From positions 1-63,612 of the forward strand of contig JBJFAY010000098.1 of assembly GCA_051888155.1 (NCBI GenBank): a stretch of 63,612 nt of DNA. The letters are read 5' to 3'. The DNA is from Alphaproteobacteria bacterium. GTDB lineage: Bacteria; Pseudomonadota; Alphaproteobacteria; CAAGCB01; CAG-977. The translations under genes and the position numbers were made by a program. Positions 21,729-63,612 of the stretch are shown piece after piece (positions within the stretch are counted from its first letter, which is position 1; each line of letters opens with the position of its first letter). The notes beneath the pieces are model-generated. The model was not told the origin of the DNA. It searched no databases and saw only the letters and a list, made by a program, of their open reading frames with translations.

Positions 21729-23232
21729 TTGGTTTCGTTTGACATTTTCGATACGGCCGTCGTACGGCTGCTGCCCCGTCCGAAAGATTTGTTCAAAATT
21801 ATTGAAAAACAATATGCCCTTCCGTCGTTTTATAAAAACAGACGCCTTGCAGCCCGCTTGGTTCGCGCAGAAAATAAAGCAAAAGGGATTTTAGAAATCA
21901 CATTGGACGAGATTTACGACCGGCTGCGCGCAATCGACTCTTCAATCACTCTGAAAGCCGAGGAACTAAAACAAGCGGAAATCAATTTGGAACTTCGTTT
22001 GTGCCGCCGAAATAACGAAATCGGCGCATTATTTGATTATCTGAAAAAAAAACGGTAAAAAAATCTGTTTTACTTCAGATATGTATCTGCCCGGAAACGT
22101 CGTTGAACAAATATTAAAAAAATGCGGTTATGAAAAATACGATTTTCTTTATTTATCAAGCCAAGATAGACTGACAAAAAAAGACGGCGGACGGTTTTTA
22201 AATTGTTCGGCTCCCGAACGGATCTTGCATATCGGCGATAATGAAGACGCTGATTTTTTTACCCCTCTACGATCGGGATTAAACGCATTTTTGTATAAAC
22301 GTTCTTTTCATTGTTTTTTATCCGGCCGTTTAATGAAAAAAAACAAAAAAAATCTTTATCTGGATTTTGCCGGCTGTCTGGCAAAACAAAAAGACTTCCC
22401 GTCCTACTGGTTTTCAATCGGTTATCAATATGTCGATCCGTTACTGAGCTGTTTTTGCACTTGGTTAAAAAAAGAAACGGCGGATTTCGTTTCAAATCCG
22501 CTTTGTTTTTTGGCACGGGACGGCATGATAATGCGTCATGTTTATGAAACGATGTTTCCCAAAGAGACGACGACTTATCTTTATTGTTCGCGCGCTTTGA
22601 CGTCAAACACGGACTGCCGTGAAACATACGTTGATTATTTAAAGCAGACGCTTCCGCCCTGTTTTTGCGTCATTGACGTCGGACGAAAAGGAACAATTCA
22701 AGATAATTTAAAACGCCTGCTGCCTGAAACAAAAATTAACGGATATTATGTCGATTTGCGTATTTCCTCTTCGGACAAATCCGGTTTTTACACAAACGGC
22801 GACAAAAATCACCGCCGTTTTCTGGATTTTTTAGACTTTTTGTTCATGGCTCCCGCTTCCCTGTGTATCGGCATTGAAAAAAAAGACGGTCTTTTCGCGC
22901 CTGTTTACCTGCCGATTGACGCAGATGAAAGAAAACGCCATGAAATCGCTGACGAAATTCACAGCGGTACGCTTGCTTTTATCCGCGACGCAGCGGCTTT
23001 CACGGATATTCTCTCGGCTGACAGTTCTGCGGAAAACGTATTGAACATATTAGAAATTTTGCTGCGTTTCCCAAAGCAGGAACAAAAGTATTTGGAAAAC
23101 ATTAAAATTCCGTTCGGCATGAAAAACGAAAAAAGCCGTTTTCTGCTTTCACCGCGGTTAAACATAAAATGCTTGTATCACCCCGTATCGTTTTTTAACA
23201 TTTGGCGCAAAAGCACGATCAAAAGATTTTAA
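21729..23232 (+). pseudogene. HAD-superfamily (COG5610-like) hydrolase gene split into two ORFs by a frame break in an A9 tract (22044-22052)
   Basis: ORF1 carries the HAD motif I (SFDIFDT). Removing one A gives ...DYLKKNGKKICFTSDMYLPG... and continues into ORF2 (HIGDNEDADF, motifs III/IV). ORF2 has no ribosome-binding site. Confidence 0.65.
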
Positions 23233-36020: not shown

Positions 36021-36986
36021 TTAACGCACCTTTCCGATCCTTGCCGCAATCACTGCCGCGTCAGGCTGCGGCCGGGAAAACTTTTCCGGATCGTTTTCAA
36101 TACTTTTCCGGGCGGCGGGCGCGCGAGTCAGTAAAGCGCTTATTTTTTCCGCCGATTCCTTATTGACCGCGACATAATGCCCGCTTTCCAAAACCTTCGG
36201 GTTTTCCGAGAAATAACAGCTGCCGTCGTTATTCAGACACAACTCTTTAACAATTTTTGCCGCCGGCTGAGAAACAGCATACGTGTCGGCCAGATGATCG
36301 CCGCGGTCTTCACGCCGTTGCATCATTTCAACCTGATACGCTTCGTCATAAGCTTTTTTGACCGGTTCATTGTCATACCAAGCCAGAAAAGCCGCCGTGC
36401 GCGCATGGCCGTTTTGCAAAGCGTTGTCTTCATATAAAGCGTATTCAAAAGCTTTTCCGATCGCGCGGTTGTCCGGCTGGCGGCAAAAAGCGAATAAAGG
36501 AGTCTCATTGCCTTTTTCCATCATTTCTCCCAGCGCCTGAACAGCCGTCGCCTGAGCGTCCGCTTCAACGGCGCGGGTACGCATAATGTTCGTTTTAACC
36601 GTTTCCCTGCGAGGCCGCTTATCATCGCTGGCGTCATATTCGCCGCGTTCAAATTGCCCGGCATGACGGCATTCATGAATCAAAACGCCGACCAAAACAT
36701 CGTCTTTGCTGACAGGATTTAAAATAATATTCTTATTTTCCTTATTGCACCCGCCGTTGCAGCCGAAAGCAAACTCCATACCCAGTTTATAACCGGCCTT
36801 GCTGGCGATTTCCAACGTCTGCCGGCCGGTTTCGGATTCGACAATCTGATTAATCATACCCGTAATGCGTTCTTGAACGGACTTGTCGCCGGCGATTTCA
36901 AACGGCGGCTGTAAATTTTGCTTTAAAGAAGCCTCTTTCTGTCCGGCGGGAACGGATTGTTCGAAATTTTGTTGTAAAACGGGCAT
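36021..36986 (-). CDS. HExxH-motif protein (putative zinc metallopeptidase-like), last gene of the MCE operon
   Basis: LIHECRHAGQ motif. Start at MPVLQQ (36986), sharing one nucleotide with the upstream stop codon (TAATG). Confidence 0.5.
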   Translation of the reverse strand: MPVLQQNFEQSVPAGQKEASLKQNLQPPFEIAGDKSVQERITGMINQIVESETGRQTLEIASKAGYKLGMEFAFGCNGGCNKENKNIILNPVSKDDVLVGVLIHECRHAGQFERGEYDASDDKRPRRETVKTNIMRTRAVEADAQATAVQALGEMMEKGNETPLFAFCRQPDNRAIGKAFEYALYEDNALQNGHARTAAFLAWYDNEPVKKAYDEAYQVEMMQRREDRGDHLADTYAVSQPAAKIVKELCLNNDGSCYFSENPKVLESGHYVAVNKESAEKISALLTRAPAARKSIENDPEKFSRPQPDAAVIAARIGKVR

Positions 36987-37585
36987 TATCTTTGACCTTT
37001 TTTCAAATTTTTCAACGCATAATCGGCTATGGTGTACCCCAGATCCTTTAACAACCGCTGTTCCGCCCGGACGACGCCGGCATACGTATCGTCCACGGGA
37101 GCAATCAAAGTAGAGCGCGTCCGGTAAATCATATTGCCTGAATTCGACATGATTGTCCACCAGGTATCCAATACGGCTTCTTTGTCAAAAGTCGCGTCAA
37201 ATCTTAAAACCTCGACGAACAGACGGTATGGAAACAAATCCCTGTTCAGATTGATCTGTTTGGCCGCCGGATATCCCATGCGTTCGGAAACGGCGCCGGC
37301 CAAAACGCGGGGGAAAACGTCGCTCAGCTGTTCCGCCCAACGGTTGAATTCGGAAGCCGTCAACGTCACCGAATCGGCCCGCCGGATCACAATCTGCGGC
37401 TTGTCCAGATAATTCGGAATAAAAACCGGTTCAATGCCGATTAAAATACGATCCGCATTTTTCAACGTTACGCTTTGTTCGGGCATAACGTTGCTGTCCA
37501 AAACATAAAATGTCGACGGACGAGAAAAACCGCACGCCCCCATAAAAACAGCGGCGGCAAAAATCAGACAAAAACGCTTTTTCAT
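36986..37585 (-). CDS. PqiC/DUF330-type ABC-transport auxiliary lipoprotein
   Basis: Lipobox FMGAC, about 200 aa, positioned after an MCE gene. Confidence 0.65.
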   Translation of the reverse strand: MKKRFCLIFAAAVFMGACGFSRPSTFYVLDSNVMPEQSVTLKNADRILIGIEPVFIPNYLDKPQIVIRRADSVTLTASEFNRWAEQLSDVFPRVLAGAVSERMGYPAAKQINLNRDLFPYRLFVEVLRFDATFDKEAVLDTWWTIMSNSGNMIYRTRSTLIAPVDDTYAGVVRAEQRLLKDLGYTIADYALKNLKKGQR

Positions 37586-47923: not shown

Positions 47924-47950
47924 TTTTTTTCTCCGGACAAAAGGATTTGT

Positions 47951-50181: not shown

Positions 50182-50189
50182 CTTGATAT

Positions 50190-50222: not shown

Positions 50223-50233
50223 TTTTACGTCGT

Positions 50234-52096
50234 CTATTGTTCAACGGCGGACATCATAAAATCCGTCACGCGCTGTGAAAACGCCGCGGGATCTTTGATC
50301 GGTTCGCCTTCAATGATTTTCGCCTGGTCAAACAACACCTGCACCAACGCTTTGTTCGTATCGCCCGTATCGCCGGCCGCGACTTTCGCCGCCAGCTTTT
50401 TAATCAGCGGGTGGCGCGGGTTAATATCAAAATAACGGTTGCTGACGTACAAAGACGGCTGGTTATGCTGGCGCATCAGGCGTTCCAGATGAATCGACGC
50501 TTCGCCGTCGCCGGTCGAAAGGGCAACCGGGCTTTTGGTCAGACGTTCCGTCGTGCGGACTTCTTTAACTTCGTCGCCGACAATTTCTTTCATAAATTTT
50601 GTCAGCGCGTCCAAATCGGCCTGCGGCGCTTTTTCCAGCTTGTCGGATTGATCCGTAATTAACAGCGTTTCCAATTCCTGCGCGCCGGCATTGACCGATT
50701 TAATCGGCTTTTCCTTATACTGCGTCAACCCCTGCGGCCAAAATTCGTCAATCGGATCGGTTAAAAGCAAAACTTCAATCCCGCGGGCGGCAAAGCCTTC
50801 CAGCTGCGGATTGTTGCGCAGAACGCTCAAATCATCGCCGGTAATGTAATAGATGCTCTTTTGGCCGTCTTTCATGCGGGAAATATAATCCGCAAGCGTT
50901 GTCAGACCGTCGCCGTTCGTCGAATAAAAACGGCAGAGCTCGGCGATTTCTTCGCGGTTATAGGAATCTTCAAAAATGCCTTCTTTCAGCACGGCGCCAA
51001 AAGCGTTCCAGAACGTCAGATATTCCTGTTCGTTTTCGGAACGTTTTTTCAATTCGCCCAGAATACGGCGGACAACGCCTGTTTTGATCTTTGCCAGAAC
51101 GGGGGTTTTTTGCAGCATTTCACGTGAAACGTTCAGCGGCAGTTCTTTGGTATCAATAACGCCCTGAACAAAGCGCAGGTAATTCGGCAACATGTCTGGC
51201 ACCTGATCGGTGATGAAAACACGGTTGATATACAGCTTGATCTGCGCGTTGCGGTTGGGTTGGAATATGTCAAAAGGCGTCTTGGTCGGAATAAACATCA
51301 GGGCCGTGTATTCGATCGTGCCTTCGGCTTTATAGTGCAGGATATCCCACGGGTCGTCAAAAGCGTGCGAGATATGGCGGTAAAAATCTTTGTACTGCGC
51401 GTCGGTGATGTCGGCTTTGTTGCGCGTCCACAAAGCGCTGGCCATGTTGATCGTTTCCGTTTCGCCCATGTAATGCATAATCACGGGAAAAGAAATATGA
51501 TCGGAAAACTGGCGCACGATGCGGCGGACTTCGGAAGCTTCGGCGTATTGATATGCGTCCGGTTTTAAATAAAGCGTGATTTTCGTGCCGCGGGAAACGT
51601 CTTTTTCTTCGGTGATCGTAAAGGATCCTTTTCCCGTTGACGTCCACAGCCAGCCTTCTTCTTCTCCGGCTTTGCGGGAACGCACTTCGACTTTTTCCGC
51701 AACCATGAACGCCGAATAAAATCCGACGCCGAATTGGCCGATAATCGTCGCGTCCTTTTGTTTGTCGCCGGTCAGGTTATTTAAAAATTCCGCCGAACCG
51801 GAACGCCCGATAGATCCCAGATCTTTAATCAAATCCTGTTTGTTCATGCCGATGCCGTTGTCGGCGATCGTCAACGTATGGGCGTCTTTGTCAGGGGTAA
51901 TATCAATTCTAAATTCACCGTCCCCTTTGGCGATATCCGGCTTCATAATCGCGGCATAGCGCAGTTTGTCGCAGGCGTCCGATGCGTTTGAAACCAATTC
52001 CCTTAAAAAAATGTCCGTATCCGAATAAAGAGCGTTGACAACAATATCTAAAATTTTGCCGACTTCAGCTTGAAATTGCATTTTTTCTTCCGACAT
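50234..52096 (-). CDS. htpG: Chaperone HtpG (Hsp90)
   Basis: FQAEVGKILDIVVNALYSDTDIFLRELVSNASDA... is full-length collinear with HtpG. Confidence 0.95.
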   Translation of the reverse strand: MSEEKMQFQAEVGKILDIVVNALYSDTDIFLRELVSNASDACDKLRYAAIMKPDIAKGDGEFRIDITPDKDAHTLTIADNGIGMNKQDLIKDLGSIGRSGSAEFLNNLTGDKQKDATIIGQFGVGFYSAFMVAEKVEVRSRKAGEEEGWLWTSTGKGSFTITEEKDVSRGTKITLYLKPDAYQYAEASEVRRIVRQFSDHISFPVIMHYMGETETINMASALWTRNKADITDAQYKDFYRHISHAFDDPWDILHYKAEGTIEYTALMFIPTKTPFDIFQPNRNAQIKLYINRVFITDQVPDMLPNYLRFVQGVIDTKELPLNVSREMLQKTPVLAKIKTGVVRRILGELKKRSENEQEYLTFWNAFGAVLKEGIFEDSYNREEIAELCRFYSTNGDGLTTLADYISRMKDGQKSIYYITGDDLSVLRNNPQLEGFAARGIEVLLLTDPIDEFWPQGLTQYKEKPIKSVNAGAQELETLLITDQSDKLEKAPQADLDALTKFMKEIVGDEVKEVRTTERLTKSPVALSTGDGEASIHLERLMRQHNQPSLYVSNRYFDINPRHPLIKKLAAKVAAGDTGDTNKALVQVLFDQAKIIEGEPIKDPAAFSQRVTDFMMSAVEQ

Positions 52097-52178
52097 TATA
52101 ACCTCCCAGTTAACAAACGTGCTTTAATTAGGTGCGACTGCGGCAGATTTCAACCCTTTATATGAAAGTTTTTCAAGA

Positions 52179-54704
52179 ATGGAACGGATTTTAACAGCTT
52201 TGCTCGGCCCGACGAATACGGGGAAAACTTATCTGGCCGTTGAAAAAATGTTAACGCATGAATCCGGCATGATCGGGTTTCCTCTGCGGCTGCTGGCGCG
52301 CGAAAACTACGACAGAATCGCGCGGCTGAAAGGAGCGGAAAACGTTGCTTTGATCACGGGCGAAGAAAAAATCATGCCGGACAATCCGTCTTATTTCGTC
52401 TGCACGGTTGAAGCGATGCCTTTGGACCGTCCGGTCGATTTTCTGGCGGTTGACGAAATTCAAATGGCCGCCGACGTTGAACGCGGGCATATTTTCACGG
52501 ATCGTCTGCTGCATGCGCGCGGCGACAGGGAAACGATGTTTCTGGGCGCGGAAACGATCAAGCCTTTGTTGAAACGGCTGATCCCGGAAACGGAAATCGA
52601 AACGCGCCCCCGATTTTCAAAATTAAGCTATACGGGAATAAAGAAAATCACGCGGCTGCCCGCGCGTTCGGCCATTATCGGGTTTTCGGTGCAGGACGTG
52701 TACGCTTTGGCCGAATTGATCCGCCGGCAAAAAGGCGGCGCGGCCGTCGTTATGGGCGCGCTCAGCCCTCGGACGAGAAACGCGCAGGTCGATATGTTTC
52801 AATCCGGCGAAGTCGATTATCTGGTGGCGACCGACGCGATCGGCATGGGGCTGAATATGGATATTTCTCATGTCTGTTTTACGTCTTTGCGCAAATTCGA
52901 CGGACAGAAAATGCGCGCTTTGTCCGCGGCCGAACTGGCGCAGATTGCCGGACGCGCCGGCCGGTACATGAAAGACGGAACGTTCGGCGCGGCTGCGGAA
53001 GCGTCCGCTTTGACGCAAGATGTGATCGACAGGATTGAAGAACACCGCTTTGAACCTTTATCCCACCTGTTTTGGCGCAATCCCGATTTAAAAACGACGT
53101 CTTTGGACGCCTTGATTTACAGCTTGAATATCCGTCCGTCTTTGCCCGGTCTGGTCGGCGCGCGCAAAGCCGAAGACCAGCAGGCGTTGGAATCTTTGGC
53201 GCGGGACACGGGGATTGTCCGGCTGGCAAATCATGCTTCGCGCGTCAAGCTGTTATGGGAAATCTGCCAGATTCCCGATTTCCGCAAAGTAACGCCCGAA
53301 GCCCATGCGCGTTTGTTATCGCAGATTTACCGTCTGATCTTGGACAAAGGACGTTTGCCGCAGGATTGGTTTGAAAAACAGGTAAAAATACTGGACAATA
53401 CCAACGGAGATATTGATGTTGTTACGGGACGTATTGCAGGAATCAGAATTTGGACGTATATTGCGCAAAGAAAAGAATGGATCGACCGGTCGGCGTACTG
53501 GCGGGACATGACGAGAGCCGTTGAGGACAGATTATCCGATGCTTTGCATCAAAAACTGGCGCAGCGGTTCGTGGACAAGCGTACATCTGTTTTGGTAAAA
53601 GGTATGAAAACACAGGTAGAATTATTTACAAAGATCGAAGAAGACGGCTCGGTTGAAGTCGAAGGGCAATCTGTCGGAAAAATGGAAGGGCTGCGTTTCG
53701 TGCCGATTACGGGCGCCGGAAAGTTTGCCGACCGCGTTTTGATTTCCGCGGCGGAAAAGGCTTTGCAGGCCGAATTTCAAAACAGAATCACGGCGATTCT
53801 CAATGCGCCCGAAGACGTTTTTACGCTGGAAAACGACGCGCAGATTTTATGGCGGGGACAGGCGCTGGGAAAAGTCGTTAAAGGACGCGATATTCTGCAC
53901 CCCGTCGTTGCTTTAAGCGTGCATGAAACAATCGAACAGGCGCAGATTGATCAGGTAAAAACACGCCTGAACGGCTGGCTGGAAGTATATCTGGCCAATA
54001 AAATCGCGCCGCTGTTCGCGGCTTTGCGCACGCTGGACGAAGAAAACGCTTCCGGTTCCGCCCGCGGTATTTTATGGCAGGTCGCCGAACAGCTGGGGAC
54101 GATGCCGCGTGAAAAAGTATTCGATTTAATCAAGGGGTTGAACGAAACGGATAAAAAGGTGCTGGCTAAAGCCGGCATGCGGCTGGGACATGATTATTTG
54201 TTTTTCCCGATGCTGTTAAAGCCCGCGGCTCAGCGCGTCTGCGCAATTTTATGGAAAATCTGGTTTGATAAAACACAGTATGCGACCGGATTTGCGATTG
54301 ACGGCAAGATGTCGTTTGCCGTCGAACGCGGCGTACCGCGCGCTTTGTATCTGGTACAGGGGTATGCTCTGGCGGGAACGCGGGCGATCCGTGTCGACGT
54401 TATGGAACGCTTTACGGCAAAGCTGCGCGAAATTACGCGGCAGGATAAAGGAAAACCGCAAGTTTTACCGCTGGATCTGTTGTCGATTGCCGGACTGAAG
54501 CGCGACGAAGCCGAAGAAGTATTCGGATTTTTAGGCTTTCGTGTTACCAAAGAAAAACAAACGGCAACCGTCGGCGAAGAAACCAAAGAAACCGAAATTT
54601 TGATGATTCAGCCGAAGTTTAAAAAACGCAAAGCCGAAACAAAGACCGAACCGGTCGATATGACTTCGCCGTTTGCGGCTTTGGCTTCTTTGAAAAAGAA
54701 ATGA
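52179..54704 (+). CDS. SUV3-like helicase-related protein
   Basis: GPTNTGKT Walker A, DEIQ box and SF2 C-terminal motifs (ATDAIGMGLN, QIAGRAGR), followed by a long C-terminal extension. Confidence 0.75.
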   Translation: MERILTALLGPTNTGKTYLAVEKMLTHESGMIGFPLRLLARENYDRIARLKGAENVALITGEEKIMPDNPSYFVCTVEAMPLDRPVDFLAVDEIQMAADVERGHIFTDRLLHARGDRETMFLGAETIKPLLKRLIPETEIETRPRFSKLSYTGIKKITRLPARSAIIGFSVQDVYALAELIRRQKGGAAVVMGALSPRTRNAQVDMFQSGEVDYLVATDAIGMGLNMDISHVCFTSLRKFDGQKMRALSAAELAQIAGRAGRYMKDGTFGAAAEASALTQDVIDRIEEHRFEPLSHLFWRNPDLKTTSLDALIYSLNIRPSLPGLVGARKAEDQQALESLARDTGIVRLANHASRVKLLWEICQIPDFRKVTPEAHARLLSQIYRLILDKGRLPQDWFEKQVKILDNTNGDIDVVTGRIAGIRIWTYIAQRKEWIDRSAYWRDMTRAVEDRLSDALHQKLAQRFVDKRTSVLVKGMKTQVELFTKIEEDGSVEVEGQSVGKMEGLRFVPITGAGKFADRVLISAAEKALQAEFQNRITAILNAPEDVFTLENDAQILWRGQALGKVVKGRDILHPVVALSVHETIEQAQIDQVKTRLNGWLEVYLANKIAPLFAALRTLDEENASGSARGILWQVAEQLGTMPREKVFDLIKGLNETDKKVLAKAGMRLGHDYLFFPMLLKPAAQRVCAILWKIWFDKTQYATGFAIDGKMSFAVERGVPRALYLVQGYALAGTRAIRVDVMERFTAKLREITRQDKGKPQVLPLDLLSIAGLKRDEAEEVFGFLGFRVTKEKQTATVGEETKETEILMIQPKFKKRKAETKTEPVDMTSPFAALASLKKK

Positions 54705-55075
54705 GCGATTCACAACGAATCGACAAATGGCTTTACTTTACACGTTTTGCGAAAACCCGCGCGGCGGCGCAGGAAATGATCGCCGGCGGGCATGTGGCCG
54801 TTAATGATGAAAAAGTCCTGAAAGCCAGCCGGGAAATAAAAACGGGCGATGAATTGAATATTCTGCGCAGTTCCGTTCGGTTTTTCGTGCGCGTGACGGG
54901 ATTTGCCGAAAAAAGAGTCGGCGCTCCCGTCGCCCGGACATTATATGAACAGCTGCGCGATCCGGAAAATTTGGCTCCGCCGCCGAAAAAAGCGTTTGAA
55001 TTCCGCGTAGCCGGATCAGGCCGTCCGACTAAACGTGACAGACGGGCGATCAACCGACTGAAAGGGAAATTTTAG
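54701..55075 (+). CDS. hslR: S4-domain RNA-binding protein (Hsp15/HslR-like)
   Basis: RIDKWLYFTRFAKTRAAAQEMIAGGHVAVN S4 motif. ATGA overlap with the helicase gene. Confidence 0.75.
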   Translation: MSDSQRIDKWLYFTRFAKTRAAAQEMIAGGHVAVNDEKVLKASREIKTGDELNILRSSVRFFVRVTGFAEKRVGAPVARTLYEQLRDPENLAPPPKKAFEFRVAGSGRPTKRDRRAINRLKGKF

Positions 55076-56216
55076 CTTTCATTAATGACTTTTTTGTCGT
55101 TGAAATAATTTTGTTTTTCCACAAAACAACGTCTTTTATCGCCAGCTTTTGTTGCGCCGTGATGAATGATTCCATAAAATGATAGTCAATGCTTTTATCG
55201 TCTATAACAGGAAGCCATAGGAGATCTTTTTTTATTTTTTCTTTTGAAATTGAATCTCCCCATGAATATTTATCATGAAGGCTTTTATATAGAGCCGACA
55301 CTAAAAATAAGAAATGTTTATATGTTTTATTTATTTCTATTTTTAATGATAACGATAAATTGTGACTGTCGTTTGAAAAATAATTTTTTTCTTGATATGT
55401 GATAACCATTGACTTCCCTGCAATCATAATGGAATTTCCTTTTTCTAAAAAAGATTTATCATACGAAATATATGTAAGAATAGAATTGTTTGTTTCTCCG
55501 GCTGTTACATAAGGATAATTTCCACTATTCGGTACAATTTGATTTTTTAAGATACTATGAGTGTTTTTAACTGAAAAAATTCCATTTTCACCTGTTATTT
55601 TAAATTCTTTAAACCGGATTTTTCCGTTTTTAAAATCGTCCAGCGCTGTTTGTTCGGCAGCTGTTAAATCGTAATCTTCCAATCCGGCGGCGCGCAGGTA
55701 TGTTGCAAGCTCGCTGACGCACGCTTGTTCAAGCTCGCAAATATAGTGTTCCATATAATCGAAAGCGAGGGATTTATTTAAAGTTGGTAAAATGATTTCA
55801 TGTTTGGCCAATTCGTTTAGCTTATATCCACTCTGTTGGCCATTATATTTAGAAATAAATTTTTGAATATGAGTTACTAAATAAAGAGCAATAAATCTGT
55901 TAATTTCAAAATTAGGTTTTAATACGTTGATGTTTTGAGAACAATAATATTCGCTTTCTTGAAATTTGGCATATTTGTAGTTTCCTATGACAGTCGCTGT
56001 AATTGTATTTTTTTCATTCGGATTAAAATCTTGAAGAGAAATTTTTCCTTTAATCCCGTTATTATCATCAACTCTTCCAACAAAGTTAATCCCCTTTTCA
56101 GTAAAAGTTAGTTTGCCTTCATCTAGAGATTTACTTCCTTTAATCTGGAATAATTGTGCATGTTCCAGTGTGTATTTTTCCCATTTGCCCCCGTTGGATT
56201 CAAATTCTTTTTTCAA
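55050..56216 (-). CDS. Restriction-modification specificity subunit with two target-recognition domains (HsdS/BcgIB-like)
   Basis: Two similarly sized variable halves are separated by a helical spacer (YICELEQACVSELATYLRAAGLEDYDLTAAEQ) and followed by a C-terminal helical region. It lies 17 nt downstream of the methylase gene. Confidence 0.7.
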   Translation of the reverse strand: MKKEFESNGGKWEKYTLEHAQLFQIKGSKSLDEGKLTFTEKGINFVGRVDDNNGIKGKISLQDFNPNEKNTITATVIGNYKYAKFQESEYYCSQNINVLKPNFEINRFIALYLVTHIQKFISKYNGQQSGYKLNELAKHEIILPTLNKSLAFDYMEHYICELEQACVSELATYLRAAGLEDYDLTAAEQTALDDFKNGKIRFKEFKITGENGIFSVKNTHSILKNQIVPNSGNYPYVTAGETNNSILTYISYDKSFLEKGNSIMIAGKSMVITYQEKNYFSNDSHNLSLSLKIEINKTYKHFLFLVSALYKSLHDKYSWGDSISKEKIKKDLLWLPVIDDKSIDYHFMESFITAQQKLAIKDVVLWKNKIISTTKKSLMKAKISLSVG

Positions 56217-56233
56217 CTGTTCCAGACGAGGGC

Positions 56234-58243
56234 TTACAGAAAATTTTCAGGTGTTCCTTCTTCTTTTAAAATTGTTGACACTTTCCACGCCAGATAATCT
56301 GCGACTGTTTTCCTAAAATCGGATTCGGTCGGAATCGTGTCCACCTGTTTGTGCTGCGCGTATGTCCAATCGTCGCCGTTCAGGGAAATCGTGTCCTCTA
56401 TCACGCAATCGTCAAAATAATGTGTCGCCCTTTTGCGGTTTAAAACGATGTCGGCGACTTCGCGATAGCGGCCGGCGGCGTCGCCCGTGTTTTTTAAATT
56501 AACGTCCGCACTTGATTTTTTGCGGTTTTGGCGTGTATAGCCGTCGTTTGAAAAATCAATGCATTTCACCAGATTGTCCGCGCCGTGCGGAACGCCGACG
56601 TCGAAAACGTAAATTGCCGTCTGCACGCCCGCTTTACCGCAAAAGATGTCGCTCATGTGAATCGCGGCAACCAGCGTGTTGCGTTTCAATATTTCCTTTG
56701 TGTAGGGCAAACCGTTGCCGCTGCCGGCGTTTTCCTGAATCAAAATCGCGGCGCGTCCGCCCGACATGCGGCTTAACGCGCGTTCAACGAAAACAAACCC
56801 TTTTCCTTTGGCGGAATAGGGCGGATTTAAAAGGAACACATCGGCGGGAAACGGCGTGTCTTTTTGCGTTCCCTGTTCGTAATTGCCGTTAAATTCGGTC
56901 AGGGAATCCTTGTGCAGAATGTTGCACGACCCGTCCCCCATCAAAATCATGTTCAAAACCGCCAACATATAAATGTCGGCGCGCAATTCAACGCCAAGCA
57001 GCTGAAAATACTTGATGTGTGCGATTTTTTCGGCGCGTTCCCGCGGGCTGGTGATCGTTTTTTCCGCGTCGTCAATCATTTGCTTCATTGCGGAAATCAA
57101 AAATCCCGCGCTGCCCGTCGCATAGTCCCAAACATAGCTGTCCTTGTTGACTTTGCACAGTTTCGCCATAAATTCGCAGACATAGCGCGGGGTCAGCACG
57201 ACGTCGTTTTTATCGCCGTCCGGAATATCCACCCATTCGTTCAACACATTGAACAATCTGCCCGTAAAATCCAAATGCCGCGCGGACGTGAAAATCGGCA
57301 TGATGTCGTTTTTAATGACGGTGTAAACGGTTTTTATCGCGCTTTCGCCATTTTTAGGCTTGTAAATCTGCGAATAAATGAACACTTGCGACAAATCGGA
57401 AACGATCAGTTCCCGTTTTTCCTTGGGCAGATTCTTTTCGTTTAAAAAGTCGGCTATTTTGTTGACGACGATCTTTCCGTCGTTTGAATTTTCCCCCGTG
57501 TCGCCCTTTAAATCCGTTATTTCCAACGGGGAAACCCTGCCGTCGACGCCCAAAGCCGCCATAATCAGCCCCGCCACCAGCTGAACGCGCGATCCGACGG
57601 ATATTTTCAATTCGTCGTGCATTTTTTGGTTTAACGCTTTCAGCTTGATTTCGATCTGATTTTCATAATCTTTGGCTTTCGCTTCTTTTTCCTCTTCGGT
57701 TAAAGAAAGCGCGTCGATTTTCTGAACGAAGCTTTCAAAGTTTTCCGGATACAGAAAACTTAAATCGCTGTAATCGCCGACTTTTTTCGGAATACAAAAA
57801 TTGTTCGCCGAAACGTAATAAACGCCCAGTTCCGTTTTGATTTCGCCCGCGTCTTCGTACCCGTTCACGCCGACGGCGACGGATTCCTTGTACGACATTG
57901 TGTTTTTCACAATCGCGTCGGCGTAATGAACCGCCCCGTTCACCGCGTATTTTTGAATGTTGGACGGTTTTGAATTGTCGATTTCTCCGTTCGGCGCGGT
58001 TTTGATCAAAGATCCCTTAGTTCCTTTGACTTCAATCATCACGGGGATTTTGCGGTTGGTCTTCGTCGTCAGAAACAATTTGATGTCGGGATAGTTGTTT
58101 CCTTTTCCGCCGCTTTTGGACGGGGCGTTTTTCAACGCGTCGTCAATTTCGGCGTTAATATTTTCGGTTTTGGTAAACGTCCGGCATTTTTTCAGCTGTT
58201 CCTTGGCAATGTTTTCGATTTTTTCTTCGATACTGGGCATCAA
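56234..58243 (-). CDS. BcgIA-like bifunctional restriction endonuclease / N6-adenine DNA methyltransferase (type IIB candidate)
   Basis: N-terminal PD...(E)xK-like motif (YPDIKLF...IEVKG), methyltransferase motif I (DYATGSAGFL) and motif IV (NPPY). Confidence 0.65.
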   Translation of the reverse strand: MMPSIEEKIENIAKEQLKKCRTFTKTENINAEIDDALKNAPSKSGGKGNNYPDIKLFLTTKTNRKIPVMIEVKGTKGSLIKTAPNGEIDNSKPSNIQKYAVNGAVHYADAIVKNTMSYKESVAVGVNGYEDAGEIKTELGVYYVSANNFCIPKKVGDYSDLSFLYPENFESFVQKIDALSLTEEEKEAKAKDYENQIEIKLKALNQKMHDELKISVGSRVQLVAGLIMAALGVDGRVSPLEITDLKGDTGENSNDGKIVVNKIADFLNEKNLPKEKRELIVSDLSQVFIYSQIYKPKNGESAIKTVYTVIKNDIMPIFTSARHLDFTGRLFNVLNEWVDIPDGDKNDVVLTPRYVCEFMAKLCKVNKDSYVWDYATGSAGFLISAMKQMIDDAEKTITSPRERAEKIAHIKYFQLLGVELRADIYMLAVLNMILMGDGSCNILHKDSLTEFNGNYEQGTQKDTPFPADVFLLNPPYSAKGKGFVFVERALSRMSGGRAAILIQENAGSGNGLPYTKEILKRNTLVAAIHMSDIFCGKAGVQTAIYVFDVGVPHGADNLVKCIDFSNDGYTRQNRKKSSADVNLKNTGDAAGRYREVADIVLNRKRATHYFDDCVIEDTISLNGDDWTYAQHKQVDTIPTESDFRKTVADYLAWKVSTILKEEGTPENFL

Positions 58244-58259
58244 GTGTTTCCTTTAAACG

Positions 58260-58284
58260 AAAAAAGTCGCCTGATGAAGGCGAC
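58260..58284 (-). terminator. Intrinsic terminator in the 5' leader of the RM operon (or the end of an upstream minus-strand RNA)
   Basis: The minus strand reads GTCGCC-TTCATCA-GGCGAC-TTTTTT and ends 16 nt before the start codon. Confidence 0.5.
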
Positions 58285-58563
58285 CGGAAGTTGGAAACTA
58301 CTCTAATGAAATAGTGCGACATATTCGCATATGACAAAAGTGCCGCGGTCAACTAGTATTCCACGGTGTTTTGCATACACTTATTTTGTCGCCTTCCGGT
58401 CGTTTGAACCAGAAGGCGTGCAAAATTATCGTCTTTACACAAGACGCATTAGAGGGGTTTCCACACCCCGGAACATTCATCAGATGTTCCGGTTAAAGGA
58501 TAAAACCCAACGGTTACAAATTTCTTACCGGCAGGGAAATTTTGACTGCTTTCAGATTCGGGC

Positions 58564-58591
58564 TTGAAAAAACGTCAAAATTGTCTATATT
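58564..58591 (+). promoter_or_regulatory. Candidate sigma-70 promoter for the ferredoxin gene
   Basis: TTGAAA-N16-TATATT about 40 nt upstream of the ATG. Confidence 0.4.
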
Positions 58592-58630
58592 GCTTTACGT
58601 CATACAAAACTAGTTTTGAGGAGATTTAAT

Positions 58631-58855
58631 ATGGCTTCTGTTGTTAATGATTCCTGCGTAAAGTGCCTGACCTGCGTTGACGTCTGCCCGGTCGGCGCGT
58701 TCGTCGAACTCGATACGCAGGTCGTCGTCAATCCCGACACCTGCATCGACTGCGGCGTATGCATTTCCGAATGTCCGCAGGGCGCTATCACCACCGAAGA
58801 TGAAGCTGATGAAAAATGGATTAAGTTTAACGCCGAAGAATCGCAGAAAGCTTAA
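58631..58855 (+). CDS. 2x[4Fe-4S] ferredoxin
   Basis: Two CxxCxxCxxxCP motifs (CVKCLTCVDVCP and CIDCGVCISECP). GAGGAG ribosome-binding site. Confidence 0.85.
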   Translation: MASVVNDSCVKCLTCVDVCPVGAFVELDTQVVVNPDTCIDCGVCISECPQGAITTEDEADEKWIKFNAEESQKA

Positions 58856-58868
58856 TTAAAAAAACAGA

Positions 58869-58897
58869 ACCCTCCGGCGCGCCGGAGGGTTTTTTTA
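58869..58897. terminator. Bidirectional intrinsic terminator
   Basis: Perfect palindrome ACCCTCCGGCG/CGCCGGAGGGT followed by T7. Confidence 0.75.
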
Positions 58898-58910
58898 TAT
58901 CCGGAAACAG

Positions 58911-59165
58911 TTATTTGCCGTTATCTTCGGCTTCTTTGATAATTTCCTTTAAATCAACGCCGATACATGAAGCAATCATAAATAAAGTCCGTAAAGTCGG
59001 ACTGTTCTGCTTTTTTTCCATTAAAGTAATCGCCGTACGGCTGATGCCGGTCTGTTCGGATATTTTCAGTTTTGTAATTTTCCGTTCCGCCCGCTTTGCG
59101 GCAAGGATTTCAACGACCTTTTCGGATAATGTTTCGGCATCTTCTCTGTTCATACCATTTAACAT
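58911..59165 (-). CDS. XRE-family HTH transcriptional regulator
   Basis: ITKLKISEQTGISRTAITLMEKKQNSPTLRTLFMIASCIGVDL. Confidence 0.75.
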   Translation of the reverse strand: MLNGMNREDAETLSEKVVEILAAKRAERKITKLKISEQTGISRTAITLMEKKQNSPTLRTLFMIASCIGVDLKEIIKEAEDNGK

Positions 59166-59171
59166 TATTTA

Positions 59172-59208
59172 TTGACGGCGCGATTTAAATGTAATTATAA
59201 TTACATTT
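59172..59208 (+). promoter_or_regulatory. Near-consensus promoter TTGACG-N18-TATAAT overlapped by a perfect 22-bp palindrome (candidate XRE operator)
   Basis: TTGACG at 59172-59177 and TATAAT at 59196-59201. The palindrome AAATGTAATTA|TAATTACATTT spans 59187-59208. Confidence 0.5.
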
Positions 59209-59455
59209 GTGCCGGCAAAGTGAAAAAGCATCTGCCAAAACGGTTAGGAAAAACAACTTTTCCAAAGAAATAATTTACAGGGACAAACGAAATGGATCGC
59301 AATCTTATTGATAATTTTATTCTGATAAAAAGAATCTATCTGTTCGGATTGCCGATTATAAAAGTATGTATTGAAAAATATAAAACAAAATATTTTCTGT
59401 TTAATATTATTCCTTTTTTTGAAATCAGCGTAAAAAATATTGATTCTAAAATAAA

Positions 59456-60463
59456 ATGACAACAATTCCTGAAATTTCAGTTATCATTCCCGTTTACAAT
59501 GTTGAAAAATTCCTGCCGCAAGCTTTGGATTCGTTGTTGTCGCAAACATTTTCGGATTTCGAAGGCGTCTGCGTTGACGACGGCAGCTCTGACAAAAGTG
59601 CGGAAATATTGGCCGCTTATGCCGGCAAAGACAGCCGTCTGCGGGTAATCAGCCAGAAAAATCAAGGCGTTTCGGCGGCCAGAAATACGGCGCTTGACGC
59701 CGCGCGGGGGAATTATATTGTTTTTCTGGATCCCGATGATTTGATTCATATTCGGTTTTTGGAAATTATGCTGGAAAAAATAAAGCGGACGAAAGCAGAT
59801 TTCGTCTGGTGTGACACGGTCAGGATCAGCGGCGGGGGCGCCGACGTCAACGCGCCGCTTTCCAATCAATGGCGCAGCTTTTTTATCTCTGAGCCGTTGG
59901 AAAAATTTGTCCTGCAAGAACAACCCTGTCTTAAAGCGGCGTTGTGGGATAAGATTTTCAAAGCTGAATTGTTTAATCATCTGCGCTTTGAAACGAACGT
60001 TTATGTCGCGGAAGATTTTATTTTGATGCTTTCGCTGCTGCGCAAAGCCGGAAATGCCGTTTATATCAATGCCGCGCTGAAATATTACCGGATCCATGAA
60101 AACAGTCTGATGCACTCCGGGCTGACGGAAAAATATGTTGACGGGCATATAACGGCATATTTTCTGTTAAAAGCGCGCTGCGCGGATTTGCCTTTATCCG
60201 AAAAAGCCGGGAAGAAACTGGCTTGCCGGCTGACAAAAATGTTGTATCGCGCCTGCGTTTGTTCACCGTATAAAAAGGCGCGTCAAAACAAAATTGTTTT
60301 TCAATTTTGGGAAAAATACAGCGCCGTATTAACGCAAATGGTGCTGAAAAAAGAATTGGATATTTCTTTACTGGATTTTAAAAAACGCTGTTTAATGCGC
60401 CTTTTTTTACTGAAGAAATTTAAACTGTTAAACTTTTTCCTGAAAATTCAGAGCCTGAAATGA
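59456..60463 (+). CDS. Family 2 glycosyltransferase
   Basis: ISVIIPVYNVEKFL...VDDGSSD...LDPDD. Confidence 0.8.
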   Translation: MTTIPEISVIIPVYNVEKFLPQALDSLLSQTFSDFEGVCVDDGSSDKSAEILAAYAGKDSRLRVISQKNQGVSAARNTALDAARGNYIVFLDPDDLIHIRFLEIMLEKIKRTKADFVWCDTVRISGGGADVNAPLSNQWRSFFISEPLEKFVLQEQPCLKAALWDKIFKAELFNHLRFETNVYVAEDFILMLSLLRKAGNAVYINAALKYYRIHENSLMHSGLTEKYVDGHITAYFLLKARCADLPLSEKAGKKLACRLTKMLYRACVCSPYKKARQNKIVFQFWEKYSAVLTQMVLKKELDISLLDFKKRCLMRLFLLKKFKLLNFFLKIQSLK

Positions 60464-61290
60464 CTAAAGTTTCCGTTTTAATGCCGATCTATAATACGAA
60501 TCCGCTTTATTTAAAAACGGCGGTCGAATCTGTTTTAAACCAACCGTTGACGGATTTTGAATTACTGATTTTAAATGATTCCCCGGATAACCGGGAATTG
60601 AAAAATATTATTGCCGGTTATAACGACAGCCGTATCGTTTATATGGAAAACGATCGCAATATCGGTATTTCGGCCAGCCGCAACAAATTATTAAAAGCTG
60701 CCGGCGCACAATATATCGCCATTATGGATCATGATGATATTTCTCTGCCCGGCCGGCTGGAAAAACAGGCTTTGTATCTGGACGCACACCCGGATACAGG
60801 AGTTACGGGCTGTAATATCAAAAGGATCGGCACAAAAATTGTTTCCGATTTTCCGATTGATAATAAATCCGTTAAATCCGCTTTACCGGACGGCTGCGTC
60901 ATCGCGCATACGGCGGCTATGATCCGCAAATCCGTTTTGACGGATAATAATATTTCATGGGAAGACGATTTTTCACCGTGCGAAGATTATATGCTGTGGG
61001 GCAGACTGGCCGGAAAAACACTGTTTCACAATCTGCCGGAAATATTGGTCGAGTATCGTTCTTATCCTGAAAATACATCGCACCGGCGAAATGAAAAAAT
61101 GGCCGAACAGACACTCAGGATACAATACCTGATAAAAAAAGAATATCCGTATCTGTCCGGCAGTTCTTTTCCCGTTGTCAGGTGGATTTACTTATTTTCT
61201 TTTATTCCGTTGATAAAAATAAAAAAACGCAAAAGAAGCATAAGCTTTTTTCTGTTTGGTTTTATTCCGGTATTCCGATACGGCGGTTAA
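60460..61290 (+). CDS. Family 2 glycosyltransferase
   Basis: VSVLMPIYN...LNDSPD...MDHDD. ATGA overlap with the previous glycosyltransferase gene. Confidence 0.8.
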   Translation: MTKVSVLMPIYNTNPLYLKTAVESVLNQPLTDFELLILNDSPDNRELKNIIAGYNDSRIVYMENDRNIGISASRNKLLKAAGAQYIAIMDHDDISLPGRLEKQALYLDAHPDTGVTGCNIKRIGTKIVSDFPIDNKSVKSALPDGCVIAHTAAMIRKSVLTDNNISWEDDFSPCEDYMLWGRLAGKTLFHNLPEILVEYRSYPENTSHRRNEKMAEQTLRIQYLIKKEYPYLSGSSFPVVRWIYLFSFIPLIKIKKRKRSISFFLFGFIPVFRYGG

Positions 61291-61299
61291 GCCGGCGTT

Positions 61300-61980
61300 T
61301 TAAAACCCGCCGGCACTGACGGCGGCGACCAGGCCGGAGGATTTTTCCGTTTCTTCCCGTTTTTCCGTATCGTTTTCGGAAGCGTCAAGATAGTTTCGCT
61401 GTTCGGCTTCATAGTTGTTTTCATCAAAAGCGTGCGCGGAACACCGGCAGCCGTATTCCGATCCCGGATTACCGCCGGCCGGCGGATCCGACCATTTAAA
61501 GACCTGTCCTTCGCGCGCGGCATGTTCGGGACGGACGCGGTCGTCTTCCTGCGTTTCCCAGACATAATAAACGGTTTTCGTCGGTGTATCGGCGTTTTCT
61601 GACAGTTTTTCAATAACTTGCGCCATAACGGATTGATTTTCCAACAACGCTTCAAAATGGGCTTTCATTTTTTCAACCAAAGCGTCATGTTCTGCGCCGC
61701 GGCCGTATAAGTAGTCGCCGCTGTTCAAAATTTCCCGATATTCCGCCGGGGACAACTGCCGGATTTCATCGGGCGAAAGAAGAATAACGACCTGCCCGGG
61801 ATCCAGAGAGAACAAATTCACCGCCGGATTTTTGGCAAAGATTTCCGTAACGGCCAGATTATTTTCCATTGCAATGGTAAAGACCGTTTCCCCTTGCTTA
61901 ACAACATGATTTTTTTCAATCAGATCCCGGCGCGGATAACGATTTAAAGAAGCTCTGTTTTCAAAAATTTCCTTTTCCAA
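61300..61980 (-). CDS. LysM + phage Mu-F/SPP1-gp7-like (MuF) domain segment; probably the 3' part of one gene with 61961..62524
   Basis: LysM segment (HVVKQGETVFTIAMENNLAVTEIFAKNP) and MuF signature (YVWETQEDDRVRPEHAAREGQVFKW...GCRC). The only start is a TTG without a ribosome-binding site. Confidence 0.6.
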   Translation of the reverse strand: MEKEIFENRASLNRYPRRDLIEKNHVVKQGETVFTIAMENNLAVTEIFAKNPAVNLFSLDPGQVVILLSPDEIRQLSPAEYREILNSGDYLYGRGAEHDALVEKMKAHFEALLENQSVMAQVIEKLSENADTPTKTVYYVWETQEDDRVRPEHAAREGQVFKWSDPPAGGNPGSEYGCRCSAHAFDENNYEAEQRNYLDASENDTEKREETEKSSGLVAAVSAGGF

Positions 61981-62524
61981 AGTTTTTTTTTAAATTGGCG
62001 CCGTATTTGTCGTACAGCTTTATTCCCAGTTGGACGGCATTGGCGTCTTTGTTTCTGTCGGAAAAAGTATCACTGATTGAATGACCTTTGGCCGCGTCAT
62101 GTATTTTTGCTCCCCAGTCTAAAGTTCTATCTTTAAAACCTGACATTCTTCCCGCATATCCGTAATGAATATTTGACCAGATGTCATAATCGTAAATATA
62201 TTTTTTGTCACCGGGCAGATATGTTCCGAAAACCGTCGCCGGCTTTTCCGGATTTACAGAAGATTTTTCCGTTTTGTGATAAAATGAAGTCGCATATTTT
62301 CTGATTGTCGGCTTATGATCCCATTTTCCGCCGGATCTGACTAAAGAAAAAAACTTTGGAAAACCGTAATAAACTGACCTTTCGTTTAAATTTTTAACAT
62401 CTTCATCTTTTTCTCTTAATTTCATTTCGTTATATATACCCGCGGAGATATTTTTATATGGGTCATTTTTCTTATTTAAATTGTCAAAACCTTGACTTTT
62501 CGTTCTTTTATTTGTATCATTCAT
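61961..62524 (-). CDS. WDxK / NxHYGYxG-motif domain resembling the polymorphic-toxin type 44 domain (tentative)
   Basis: GGKWDHKPTIRK...DIWSNIHYGYAGRMSGF. The ORF ends 19 nt after an A9 tract (61983-61991). Confidence 0.4.
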   Translation of the reverse strand: MNDTNKRTKSQGFDNLNKKNDPYKNISAGIYNEMKLREKDEDVKNLNERSVYYGFPKFFSLVRSGGKWDHKPTIRKYATSFYHKTEKSSVNPEKPATVFGTYLPGDKKYIYDYDIWSNIHYGYAGRMSGFKDRTLDWGAKIHDAAKGHSISDTFSDRNKDANAVQLGIKLYDKYGANLKKNFGKGNF

Positions 62525-62557
62525 CGTATTGTCCTTTCAGTGATAAGGGTGTTTTTT

Positions 62558-62842
62558 ATGACAAAAAAAGAATTATTATTAAAAATTTTAAAAATAATAA
62601 TTATTTATTCTTATCTTTCCTCTTTGTGTTGCTTCTATTTGATTGTTTTTATGATAGGATTTGAAGGAGAGCTCTTTACTGTAACTCAATTTTATTTAAT
62701 CTTATATGGTGTTCCTCTATCCGCTTCGATTTGTTTTTGGTTTTATCGCAAAAAAATATGCCGTTATTTATTTTGGTTCATCATGACTCTTTCGTTTCCT
62801 TTCGCTCTGCTGTATTTGTTAGGAGAACTTTCCATTATATAA
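62558..62842 (+). CDS. Small 3-TM membrane protein, array copy 1
   Basis: MTKKELLLKILK..., three hydrophobic helices and a basic loop FYRKKICR. Confidence 0.6.
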   Translation: MTKKELLLKILKIIIIYSYLSSLCCFYLIVFMIGFEGELFTVTQFYLILYGVPLSASICFWFYRKKICRYLFWFIMTLSFPFALLYLLGELSII

Positions 62843-62974
62843 CATAACGTGATTAGATGTGCAAGATAAAAAAGGGGCTGATTTTTTAGCAATAGAGGTA
62901 AAAAATGATAACTTATTGATTTTTAACAGTTTTAATTTATTTTATCTTTCTTGGGAAGAATAGGAGGCGTTTTC

Positions 62975-63259
62975 ATGACAAAAAAAGAATTTCTATTAAG
63001 AATTTTAAAAACAGCTCTTATTGGTTACTATTTTTATGAATTATGCTATTTTTATTTAGCAGTTTTACTGATAGCTACAGGTAATGAAATTATTTCTGTA
63101 TTTCAAACGTGTTTAATCTTATATGGTACTCCTCCTTTTGCTTCGATTTGTTTTTGGTTTTATCGCAAAAAAATATGCCGTTATTTATTTTGGTTCATCA
63201 TGACTCTTTCGTTTCCTTTCGCTCTGCTGTATTTGTTAGGAGAACTTTCCATTATATAA
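62975..63259 (+). CDS. Small 3-TM membrane protein, array copy 2 (divergent N-terminal two-thirds, identical C-terminus)
   Basis: MTKKEFLLRILKTALIGYYF...ASICFWFYRKKICRYLFWFIMTLSFPFALLYLLGELSII. AGGAGG ribosome-binding site. Confidence 0.6.
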   Translation: MTKKEFLLRILKTALIGYYFYELCYFYLAVLLIATGNEIISVFQTCLILYGTPPFASICFWFYRKKICRYLFWFIMTLSFPFALLYLLGELSII

Positions 63260-63390
63260 CATAACGTGATTAGATGTGCAAGATAAAAAAGGGGCTGATT
63301 TTTTAGCAATAGAGGTAAAAAATGATAACTTATTGATTTTTAACAGTTTTAATTTATTTTATCTTTTTTGGGAAGAACGGGGGTATTTTC

Positions 63391-63612
63391 ATGACAAAAA
63401 AAAAGAATTGTTATTAAAAATTTTAAAAATAATAATTATTTATTCTTATCTTTATTCTTCGTGTTGCTTCTATTTGATTGTTTTTATGATAGGATTTGAA
63501 GGGGGGCTCTTTACTGTAACTCAATTTTATTTAATCTTATATGGTGTTCCTCTATCCGCTTCGATTTGTTTTTGGTTTTATCGCAAAAAAATATGCCGTT
63601 ATTTATTTTGGT
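63391..63612 (+). pseudogene. Array copy 3 (close to copy 1), out of frame because A9 replaces A7 after the start codon; cut by the window end
   Basis: ATGAC-A9-GAATTG reads MTKKKNCY*. The downstream sequence matches copy 1 apart from a few substitutions. Confidence 0.55.

Follow-up and report, generated by a model that had tools for sequence, protein, structure and literature searches.

Near one end of a 63,612-nucleotide (nt) contig from an alphaproteobacterium of the CAG-977 lineage (JBJFAY010000098.1; the whole contig is called the window here), the minus strand carries two overlapping open reading frames (ORFs), A and B. Judged by their orthologues, these are the two halves of one gene. 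Joined, they would specify a protein with three domains: Ntox44, a polymorphic-toxin domain; LysM, a peptidoglycan-binding domain; and the core of the phage protein family MuF. The locus probably encodes one such effector of about 408 amino acids (aa) together with its immunity genes. The effector would be an envelope-directed polymorphic toxin of the MuF type, and an orphan in the species to which the window belongs.

One Gene in Two Pieces

ORF A (62524..61961, minus strand) encodes 187 aa from an ATG at 62524-62522, with a Shine-Dalgarno sequence, AAAGGA, about 8 nt 5' of it. The ORF carries GGKWDHK and DIWSNIHYGYAGRMSGF. Its stop codon (61963-61961) is separated by 19 nt from a run of nine A residues (A9; 61983..61991 on the minus strand, T9 on the plus strand), and the seven residues encoded past the run, NFGKGNF, are out of frame. 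ORF B (61980..61300, minus strand; 226 aa) overlaps ORF A by 20 nt. Its sole start codon is a TTG directly past the A9 run, and no Shine-Dalgarno sequence precedes it. The two motifs, the A9 run with its 19-nt distance to the stop, and the lone TTG without a ribosome-binding site had been correctly read in a preliminary description of the window, made from the letters alone, which also proposed that the two ORFs are one gene.

Intact relatives bear out that proposal. A search of 5.8 billion proteins returned P0001, an unbroken protein of 408 aa that is 95% identical from end to end and sits in a 135-sequence cluster. ORF A is 95% identical to P0001 residues 1-180, and ORF B is collinear with residues 183-408. 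A single 408-aa chain occurs in 11 of the 15 listed members of the 95%-identical cluster. Sister families (paralogous subfamilies of 363-430 aa, at about 50% and about 40% identity) also have Ntox44, LysM, and MuF all in one chain. The contigs that carry close orthologues are syntenic to the window, at 84-94% nucleotide identity. An exact look-up of the window's ORF A returned no record; the A9 allele was not found elsewhere.

Could the ORFs nevertheless be separate, independently translated genes, one for a stand-alone toxin and the other for a LysM-MuF protein? A gene caller did divide the equivalent allele at locus L043 into genes of 188 and 226 aa. However, the orthologues and the sister families are fused; the only start for ORF B is a TTG in the run region, lacking a ribosome-binding site; the overlap is created solely by the frameshift; and ORF A closes on out-of-frame residues. 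Two independent genes are thus extremely improbable, and this candidate was rejected.

How the frames come apart is seen by comparison with the orthologues. At the break site, the window reads TTA AAA AAA AAC T. Six related loci (L001, L002, L004, L006, L007, and L049) instead read TTA AAA AAA GAA ACT, an 11-nt tract (A7GA3) that encodes ...LKKETLEKE... within a 408-aa protein; one metagenomic allele has A8GA3. The preliminary description had suggested removing one A. This does join the frames, into a 407-aa protein that contains ...ANLKKTLEKEIFENR... and all three domains, whereas adding two A residues yields 408 aa. As an account of the cause, the suggestion fails: because the orthologues have A7GA3 where the window has A9, the window carries a net loss of 2 nt, and repair to the ancestral state means +2 nt rather than -1. 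A single-base slip (one extra A) is ruled out by the same comparison.

Three Domains

Profile searches recovered each of the domains named in the preliminary description. All three pass Pfam's own thresholds, and the domain match is far beyond chance. Ntox44 (polymorphic toxin type 44, PF15607) spans 62006..62356 on the minus strand, residues 57-173, and matches over the entire profile (71.6 bits against a gathering score of 24; E=8.1e-20; positions 1-104 of 104). The three family motifs are present: DxK, as D69-H-K71; GNxxxG, as S117-N118-I-H-Y-G122; and DxxxD, as D156-R-N-K-D160. S117 replaces the first G of GNxxxG, as it does in most of the family. Four residues (K71, N118, G122, and G167) are invariant in an alignment of 84 Ntox44 sequences, and the conserved core common to the window protein and the family runs from E33 to G167, reaching N-terminally beyond the Pfam match. 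An AlphaFold2 model of the toxin domain is confident (predicted local distance difference test score, pLDDT, 89.5) and places helices around a three-stranded sheet.

The LysM domain (PF01476; 61783..61908, minus strand; residues 206-247 of the joined protein) scores just over threshold (21.6 bits; cut-off, 20.9). A profile search against LysM domains of the Protein Data Bank (PDB) supports it (E=2e-9), as does the predicted structure, which shows the beta-alpha-alpha-beta fold of LysM: Foldseek superposes it on known LysM domains with a root-mean-square deviation of 1.1-1.6 Å (about 1.1 Å to 5k2l and 5ylg) and TM-scores of 0.83-0.88.

The MuF, or SPP1-gp7, core lies at 61435..61674 (minus strand), residues 284-363, with the signature W.T..DDRVRPEH..REG.VF.W..PP.GGNPG.EYGCRC. 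It matches Phage_Mu_F (PF04233) with 49.6 bits against 29.6 (E=7.7e-13; profile positions 32-111 of 112), and the NCBIfam SPP1-gp7 family TIGR01641 with 46.3 against 39.65 bits (E=4.4e-12). Among phage orthologous groups, it matches PHROG 324 (head morphogenesis; 7.5e-20) and also PHROG 4529 (minor head protein/DNA pilot). The chain ends in an acidic tail (61303..61434, minus strand) in which 25 of 42 positions vary; this tail is predicted to be disordered, with pLDDT below 50 for residues 387-408.

Other searches with the joined protein returned less. Against the PDB, both the full-length model (Foldseek) and the sequence found LysM domains only. Against BFVD, the full-length model gave weak matches to minor-capsid/MuF and LysM proteins. 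PADLOC assigned neither the toxin nor the neighboring membrane protein to a defense system.

A Reversed Order

MuF toxins have MuF at the N-terminus and the toxin domain at the C-terminus; they are exclusively prophage-encoded, usually with a small ORF behind (Jamet et al., 2017, PMC5576092). In the window protein the order is Ntox44, LysM, MuF. Its rarity was gauged in a sample of 84 Ntox44 sequences, 72 of them from outside the alphaproteobacterial clade. In all 72, the domain ends 22-56 residues before the C-terminus, typically behind WXG100, WXG100-like, or RHS regions, or behind other N-terminal regions. Clade members have Ntox44 at residues 55-205 or thereabouts, followed by 200-395 further residues, and only in this clade is the domain N-terminal. 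Two inferences of the preliminary description stand: the order is reversed with respect to MuF toxins; and LysM is inserted between the toxin domain and MuF, on which the profile and the predicted structure agree.

More than 1,100 Ntox44 proteins were retrieved with a profile built on the N-terminal domain. By comparison, when 1.84 billion cluster representatives were scanned exhaustively with HMMER, the full span from toxin domain to MuF appeared in only about five clusters at 50% identity. Roughly a dozen more clusters have the N-terminal Ntox44 and LysM with some other C-terminus. From its sequence relatives, the three-domain gene is real and rare, a variation on the MuF polymorphic-toxin theme.

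Likeness to the MuF toxins of Jamet et al. (2017), and to the MuF class of Zhang et al. (2012, PMC3482391), lies in three features: PF04233 stands in one chain with a toxin domain that other polymorphic-toxin families also have; candidate immunity genes adjoin; and in a sister lineage the gene stands beside portal and capsid genes. The differences are equally clear. The window gene puts the toxin first, inserts LysM, and has a MuF core of only about 80 residues. It lies outside any prophage, whereas MuF toxins belong to the DNA-packaging/head module of a temperate phage or prophage. In place of one small downstream ORF, it has divergent, multi-copy membrane-protein genes upstream. The main text of Jamet et al. 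(PMC5576092) does not include Ntox44 when it names the domains of MuF toxins.

Zhang et al. (2012, PMC3482391) list Ntox44 as an all-alpha domain with the motifs DxK, GNxxxG, and DxxxD, delivered by type II, VI, and VII secretion systems (T2SS, T6SS, and T7SS); they give it neither an immunity protein nor a link to MuF. With the Ntox44 toxins of T6SS, T7SS, and RHS systems, the window protein shares a full-length profile match, the same motifs, and the E33-G167 core. In those toxins, however, the domain is at the extreme C-terminus, whereas here it is N-terminal and has no secretion-system handle. In the literature searched, no experimental work on Ntox44 was found, and no member has been biochemically characterized.

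Candidate Immunity Genes

Divergent from the toxin gene is a tandem array (62553..63612) of 417-bp units, each consisting of one membrane-protein gene and a spacer; the window holds 2.5 copies. Copy 1 (62558..62842, plus strand) encodes 94 aa with three predicted transmembrane (TM) segments and is of the type here called proximal. Its start codon lies 33 bp from that of the toxin gene. Copy 2 (62975..63259, plus strand; also 94 aa) is of the distal type. Copy 3 (63391..63612, plus strand), again proximal, is frame-broken by an A9 run at 63396-63404 and runs off the end of the window. Copies 1 and 2 have different N-terminal halves and identical C-terminal halves, and across the membrane-protein types generally the N-terminal half differs while the C-terminal half is almost identical. 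The window thus has at least three array genes (proximal, distal, and frameshifted proximal), against two in each of two same-species contigs. No family in Pfam, NCBIfam, or PHROGs matches these proteins. On the other side of the toxin gene stands a convergent glycosyltransferase gene (60460..61290), with no small immunity ORF directly downstream.

Similar neighbors recur. In the window and in 12 of 12 related loci with readable flanks, between one and five paralogous genes for small multi-pass membrane proteins adjoin the Ntox44 gene. These loci represent the 380-aa family, the CAG:977-type family, the 500-aa Ntox44-LysM family, and L017. Eleven of the 12 have an N-terminal Ntox44; L017 encodes a PG_binding_1-Ntox44 protein with the domain at the C-terminus. 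The loci cover four or more sequence subfamilies. Further afield, WXG100-Ntox44 toxins of Herpetosiphon have a 130-aa protein with three TM segments directly behind them.

Membrane immunity as a universal property of Ntox44 systems was considered and downgraded to supporting evidence: it agrees with two Herpetosiphon-type loci but not with a cyanobacterial locus or a short contig, and an actinobacterial locus is ambiguous. For the window, the genomic context makes the array proteins the best candidates for cognate immunity proteins.

The toxin domain itself shows signs of an antagonistic history. Variation was counted in ten proteins, 85-95% identical, and is concentrated in two patches. In the first (toxin-domain residues 42-62; 62339..62401, minus strand), 13 of 21 positions vary, forming three mosaic alleles; in the second (residues 128-137; 62114..62143, minus strand), 6 of 10 positions vary. 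About 10% of positions vary in the remaining folded protein. From strain to strain, the alleles of the two patches come in different combinations, and both patches are variable also in the 380-aa sister family. Localized, recombining variation next to multi-copy, variable neighbors bears the hallmarks of an arms race between toxin and immunity, so far as sequence patterns can signal one. The patch-1 allele goes with the type (N-terminal half) of the proximal membrane protein in the three strains compared, a pairing that would fit a toxin/immunity link and is suggestive only.

Phage Particle Genes in a Sister Lineage

The preliminary description had seen no other phage genes in the window, rightly: neither phage genes nor any homologue of the particle genes described below is present. 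Inspection beyond position 63612, by way of the same-species contigs L006 and L049, revealed only housekeeping genes (encoding a 310-aa protein, a response regulator, a trypsin-like protein, and hisA/hisE) and no prophage genes. In the species of the window, the gene would therefore be an orphan toxin/immunity cassette outside any prophage.

The 380-aa sister lineage (L003 and L008-L010) presents another arrangement. Here the toxin gene is the last of a podovirus-like block (L003 570-9130, with counterparts in L008-L010) that comprises genes for portal, Bbp19-like, scaffold, and major head proteins, tail-tubular proteins A and B, a possible holin (as we read a 54-aa ORF), and an endolysin. Inserted within this block are the membrane-protein genes, and the block sits between tgt and a gene for a major facilitator superfamily transporter. 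The module in L003 may be what is left of a prophage, or a particle that has been domesticated. A more distant gene, in L015, encodes a 503-aa Ntox44-LysM protein without MuF; it lies 2 kb from a T7-like module of scaffold, capsid, tubular proteins A and B, internal virion protein, fiber, and a terminase fragment.

Several other features of the surroundings were recorded. A gene for an HExxH protein with a DUF6782 domain precedes the sister-lineage block, and a 30%-identical homologue is encoded in the window at about 36204-36869 (minus strand). Close by, the window has two overlapping ORFs on one strand (36021..37160 and 36986..37585, minus) that may likewise be pieces of a single gene. Compared with L006 and with L049, a 232-kb same-species scaffold, the window has the stretch from htpG to the membrane-protein array in inverted orientation, with the breakpoint at window 49776-50252: window 47141-49776 corresponds to L049 3-2692 in the same orientation, and window 50252-63612 to L049 20495 down to 9332. 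Between genes for an S4-domain protein and a ferredoxin lies a variable slot (55050-58243, minus strand). The window has type I restriction-modification specificity and methylase genes there; L001 has the same genes, L002 nothing, L004 a nucleotidyltransferase substrate-binding gene, and L049 an autotransporter.

Relatives with Wall-Hydrolase Domains

A genome scan found 25 further loci (L018-L042), from gut and rumen Alphaproteobacteria and, in one case, from another phylum. Most encode the same MuF core (YYIWRT..DDKVR..HA.REG.IF....PPEGGNPGEDYNCRCWAEPY) near the N-terminus, followed by one of several swappable domains: pesticin-type lysozyme, SLT, VgrG3-C/GH46, GH108, or phage lysozyme. There are several such genes to a metagenome-assembled genome (MAG), often at contig ends. 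Directly downstream, five of the six loci examined have an ORF with a signal-peptide or lipoprotein-like N-terminus. An effector gene followed by such an ORF is the usual layout of peptidoglycan-hydrolase effector/immunity pairs. The genes of L018-L042 look like an undescribed polymorphic effector/immunity family.

The parallel with periplasmic effector pairs of the pesticin and VgrG3/TsiV3 types is close for these sister MuF-core genes, which share exactly these domains as well as the downstream ORF. The window gene differs on both counts: its toxin domain is Ntox44 rather than a glycosidase, and its immunity candidates are integral-membrane rather than periplasmic proteins.

An Envelope Target?

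These observations suggest how the window protein, as a polymorphic toxin with immunity genes, might work. The MuF core would serve as a trafficking handle, which in the sister lineage would dock the protein in the head of the podovirus-like particle. Leaving together with the DNA, the protein would enter the envelope of a target cell, where LysM would hold it on the wall. The membrane proteins would confer immunity; if they do, it follows that the toxin would attack the envelope, be it peptidoglycan, the lipid-linked precursors of peptidoglycan, or the membrane, and not cytoplasmic RNA. The cassette in the window's species, lacking particle genes nearby, may be decaying or switched off, having been hit repeatedly by inactivating mutations.

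Several pointers lead to the envelope. Immunity proteins that are secreted or span the membrane accompany toxins that act at the surface (Zhang et al., PMC3482391); the immunity candidates here are membrane proteins, as is the three-TM protein behind the Herpetosiphon toxins. The window protein contains LysM, and L017 has PG_binding_1 in its place; the homologue P0061 has a hydrophobic N-terminus that, read by eye, resembles a signal peptide. The presence of LysM, together with relatives that carry wall-degrading warheads, points to the recipient envelope as the site of action.

A number of points weigh against this proposal. Zhang et al. (2012, PMC3482391) placed Ntox44 among predicted metal-independent RNases, a prediction against which the membrane-embedded immunity candidates and the peptidoglycan-binding partners argue. 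Foldseek found no structural neighbor of the toxin-domain model in the PDB (best E=3.2), so the fold indicates neither an envelope nor a nucleic-acid target; a lysozyme-like fold and a known nuclease fold are alike unsupported. The joined protein has no signal peptide, and no particle or secretion system is visible in the window's species. Only about 75 residues match phage MuF proteins, for which the PHROG profiles run to 500-1300 positions, and docking at the portal is an assumption. In an IMG/VR scan, no viral contig encoded a relative, and within 10 kb of the L003 module there is no terminase or integrase, nor are there replication genes. The immunity candidates are divergent genes upstream, whereas classical systems have theirs immediately downstream. 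Finally, an actinobacterial (Saccharopolyspora) Ntox44 locus has only a convergent gene for a TM/PH-domain protein, and a cyanobacterial Ntox44 locus has no membrane-protein neighbor.

The same facts might be explained in another way, albeit an unlikely one: as a virion or gene-transfer-agent ejection protein that opens the recipient wall during DNA entry, with the membrane proteins acting in superinfection exclusion or lysis control. Precedents exist. T7 gp16 (by a transglycosylase domain) and phiKMV gp36 (by a lysozyme domain) are internal virion proteins that open the wall at DNA entry, and SPP1 gp7, the founding member of the MuF/TIGR01641 family, is a head protein that leaves with the DNA. 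The window protein matches TIGR01641, and its proposed behavior resembles theirs: packaging in the head, exit with DNA, and action in the recipient envelope. But its effector domain is not of a lysozyme or transglycosylase fold, and it has putative immunity genes and diversifies in the manner of a toxin. A MuF core joined to a wall-binding domain is what an ejection protein might have, yet the toxin domain belongs to a family whose other members are C-terminal domains of T6SS, T7SS, and RHS toxins. In the sister lineage the gene comes last in a podovirus-like module of structural and lysis genes, and a T7-like module stands beside the L015 gene; the gene nonetheless persists in the window's species with no particle genes nearby. 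Sister MuF-core genes do have bona fide peptidoglycan-glycosidase domains, but a genome has several MuF-core genes, each paired with a putative periplasmic immunity gene. The hypervariable, recombining patches and the multi-copy, variable neighbors also speak against an ejection protein.

Mutation, Miscall, or Switch?

The A9 run at 61983-61991 belongs to a peculiar set. The four longest homopolymer runs in the window are each exactly 9 nt long, and none is longer: one is intergenic (5646), and the three in coding sequence (22044-22052, 61983-61991, and 63396-63404) all break a frame. Each of the three broken frames is restored at a run length of 10 or 11. The run at 22044-22052 splits a gene for a protein like the haloacid dehalogenase (HAD) superfamily, directly behind a glycosyltransferase gene, into ORFs 21729..22058 and 22081..23232 (plus strand). 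The upstream part has the DxDxT motif VSFDIFDTAVV..., the downstream part reads ...GKKICFTSDMYLPGN, and A8 or A11 restores the frame. At 63396-63404, copy 3 of the membrane-protein array has A9, where copy 1 and all relatives have A7. This ceiling of nine nt fits either a homopolymer-length limit of the assembly or hypermutable runs.

A real inactivating mutation has slightly less than an even chance of being the correct explanation. Damage to this gene is found elsewhere. The toxin-gene copy of MAG L007 is broken. Protein P0050, at L043, has A8GA3 (one extra A) at the same run, and P0009 and P0058 have A6 (one A fewer) at the next A7 run; run lengths at the break site thus differ among metagenomes (A7GA3, A8GA3, and A9). 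In L005 (56-2049), an IS110-family transposase gene lies directly upstream of a homologue, P0036, that is truncated at the 5' end and lacks the first 130 residues or so; here the toxin domain has been disrupted independently. Truncated alleles also occur in two further subfamilies (P0055 and P0057).

The break may well be technical, however. A homopolymer miscall of a longer run (A11, encoding ...LKKKTLEKE...) in a long-read assembly, with the gene intact, is a serious possibility, although it falls somewhat short of even. It would account for three of three coding A9 runs breaking a frame, each mended at 10 or 11, with no longer run in the window. Over 13 kb compared with six related contigs, moreover, the only uncompensated coding indels are those at 61983-61991, in the toxin gene, and 63396-63404, in copy 3, and public data are dominated by intact alleles. 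The difficulty is that all relatives show A7GA3 and A7 here instead of uninterrupted runs of 10-11, so a miscall would require additional changes in this strain at both sites. Independent assemblies, too, carry frameshifted alleles at the same and the neighboring A run.

Rather improbable is a third explanation, in which the A runs are contingency tracts that switch the toxin, one immunity copy, and a surface-polysaccharide gene, or in which slippage of RNA polymerase on A9 rescues some full-length protein. Nine-A runs reportedly give transcriptional slippage in bacteria. Alleles with one A more or one fewer, at two A runs of the toxin gene in different metagenomes, speak for switching, but the ancestral run is short and interrupted (A7GA3), and the window differs from it by 2 nt rather than by one slip. 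The third affected gene lies directly behind a glycosyltransferase gene, and glycosyltransferase genes are classic targets of phase variation; yet all three runs are exactly nine long and all three genes are off, which does not resemble independent switches.

A Putative Handle at the Other End

MuF toxins are, to our knowledge, the least understood delivery class of polymorphic toxins; we know of no demonstration that one arrives at a target cell. A handle at the opposite end of the protein would say that the MuF core works independently of its position.

A wider proposal is more tentative and, as a whole, doubtful. In gut and rumen Alphaproteobacteria, the MuF core may be a trafficking handle common to a so far undescribed family of polymorphic effectors directed at the envelope. 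These would carry Ntox44 or peptidoglycan-hydrolase warheads at either end, each with its own periplasmic or membrane immunity protein, and use podovirus-derived delivery; Ntox44 would be an envelope enzyme of new fold rather than an RNase, and the A runs would act as on/off switches of the toxin, an immunity copy, and a surface-sugar gene.

Together, the observations provide a testable hypothesis for a widespread toxin domain, with the window gene as a useful handle on Ntox44 activity. Its carrier is an uncultured alphaproteobacterium of the human gut, from a group whose competitive weapons are essentially undescribed.

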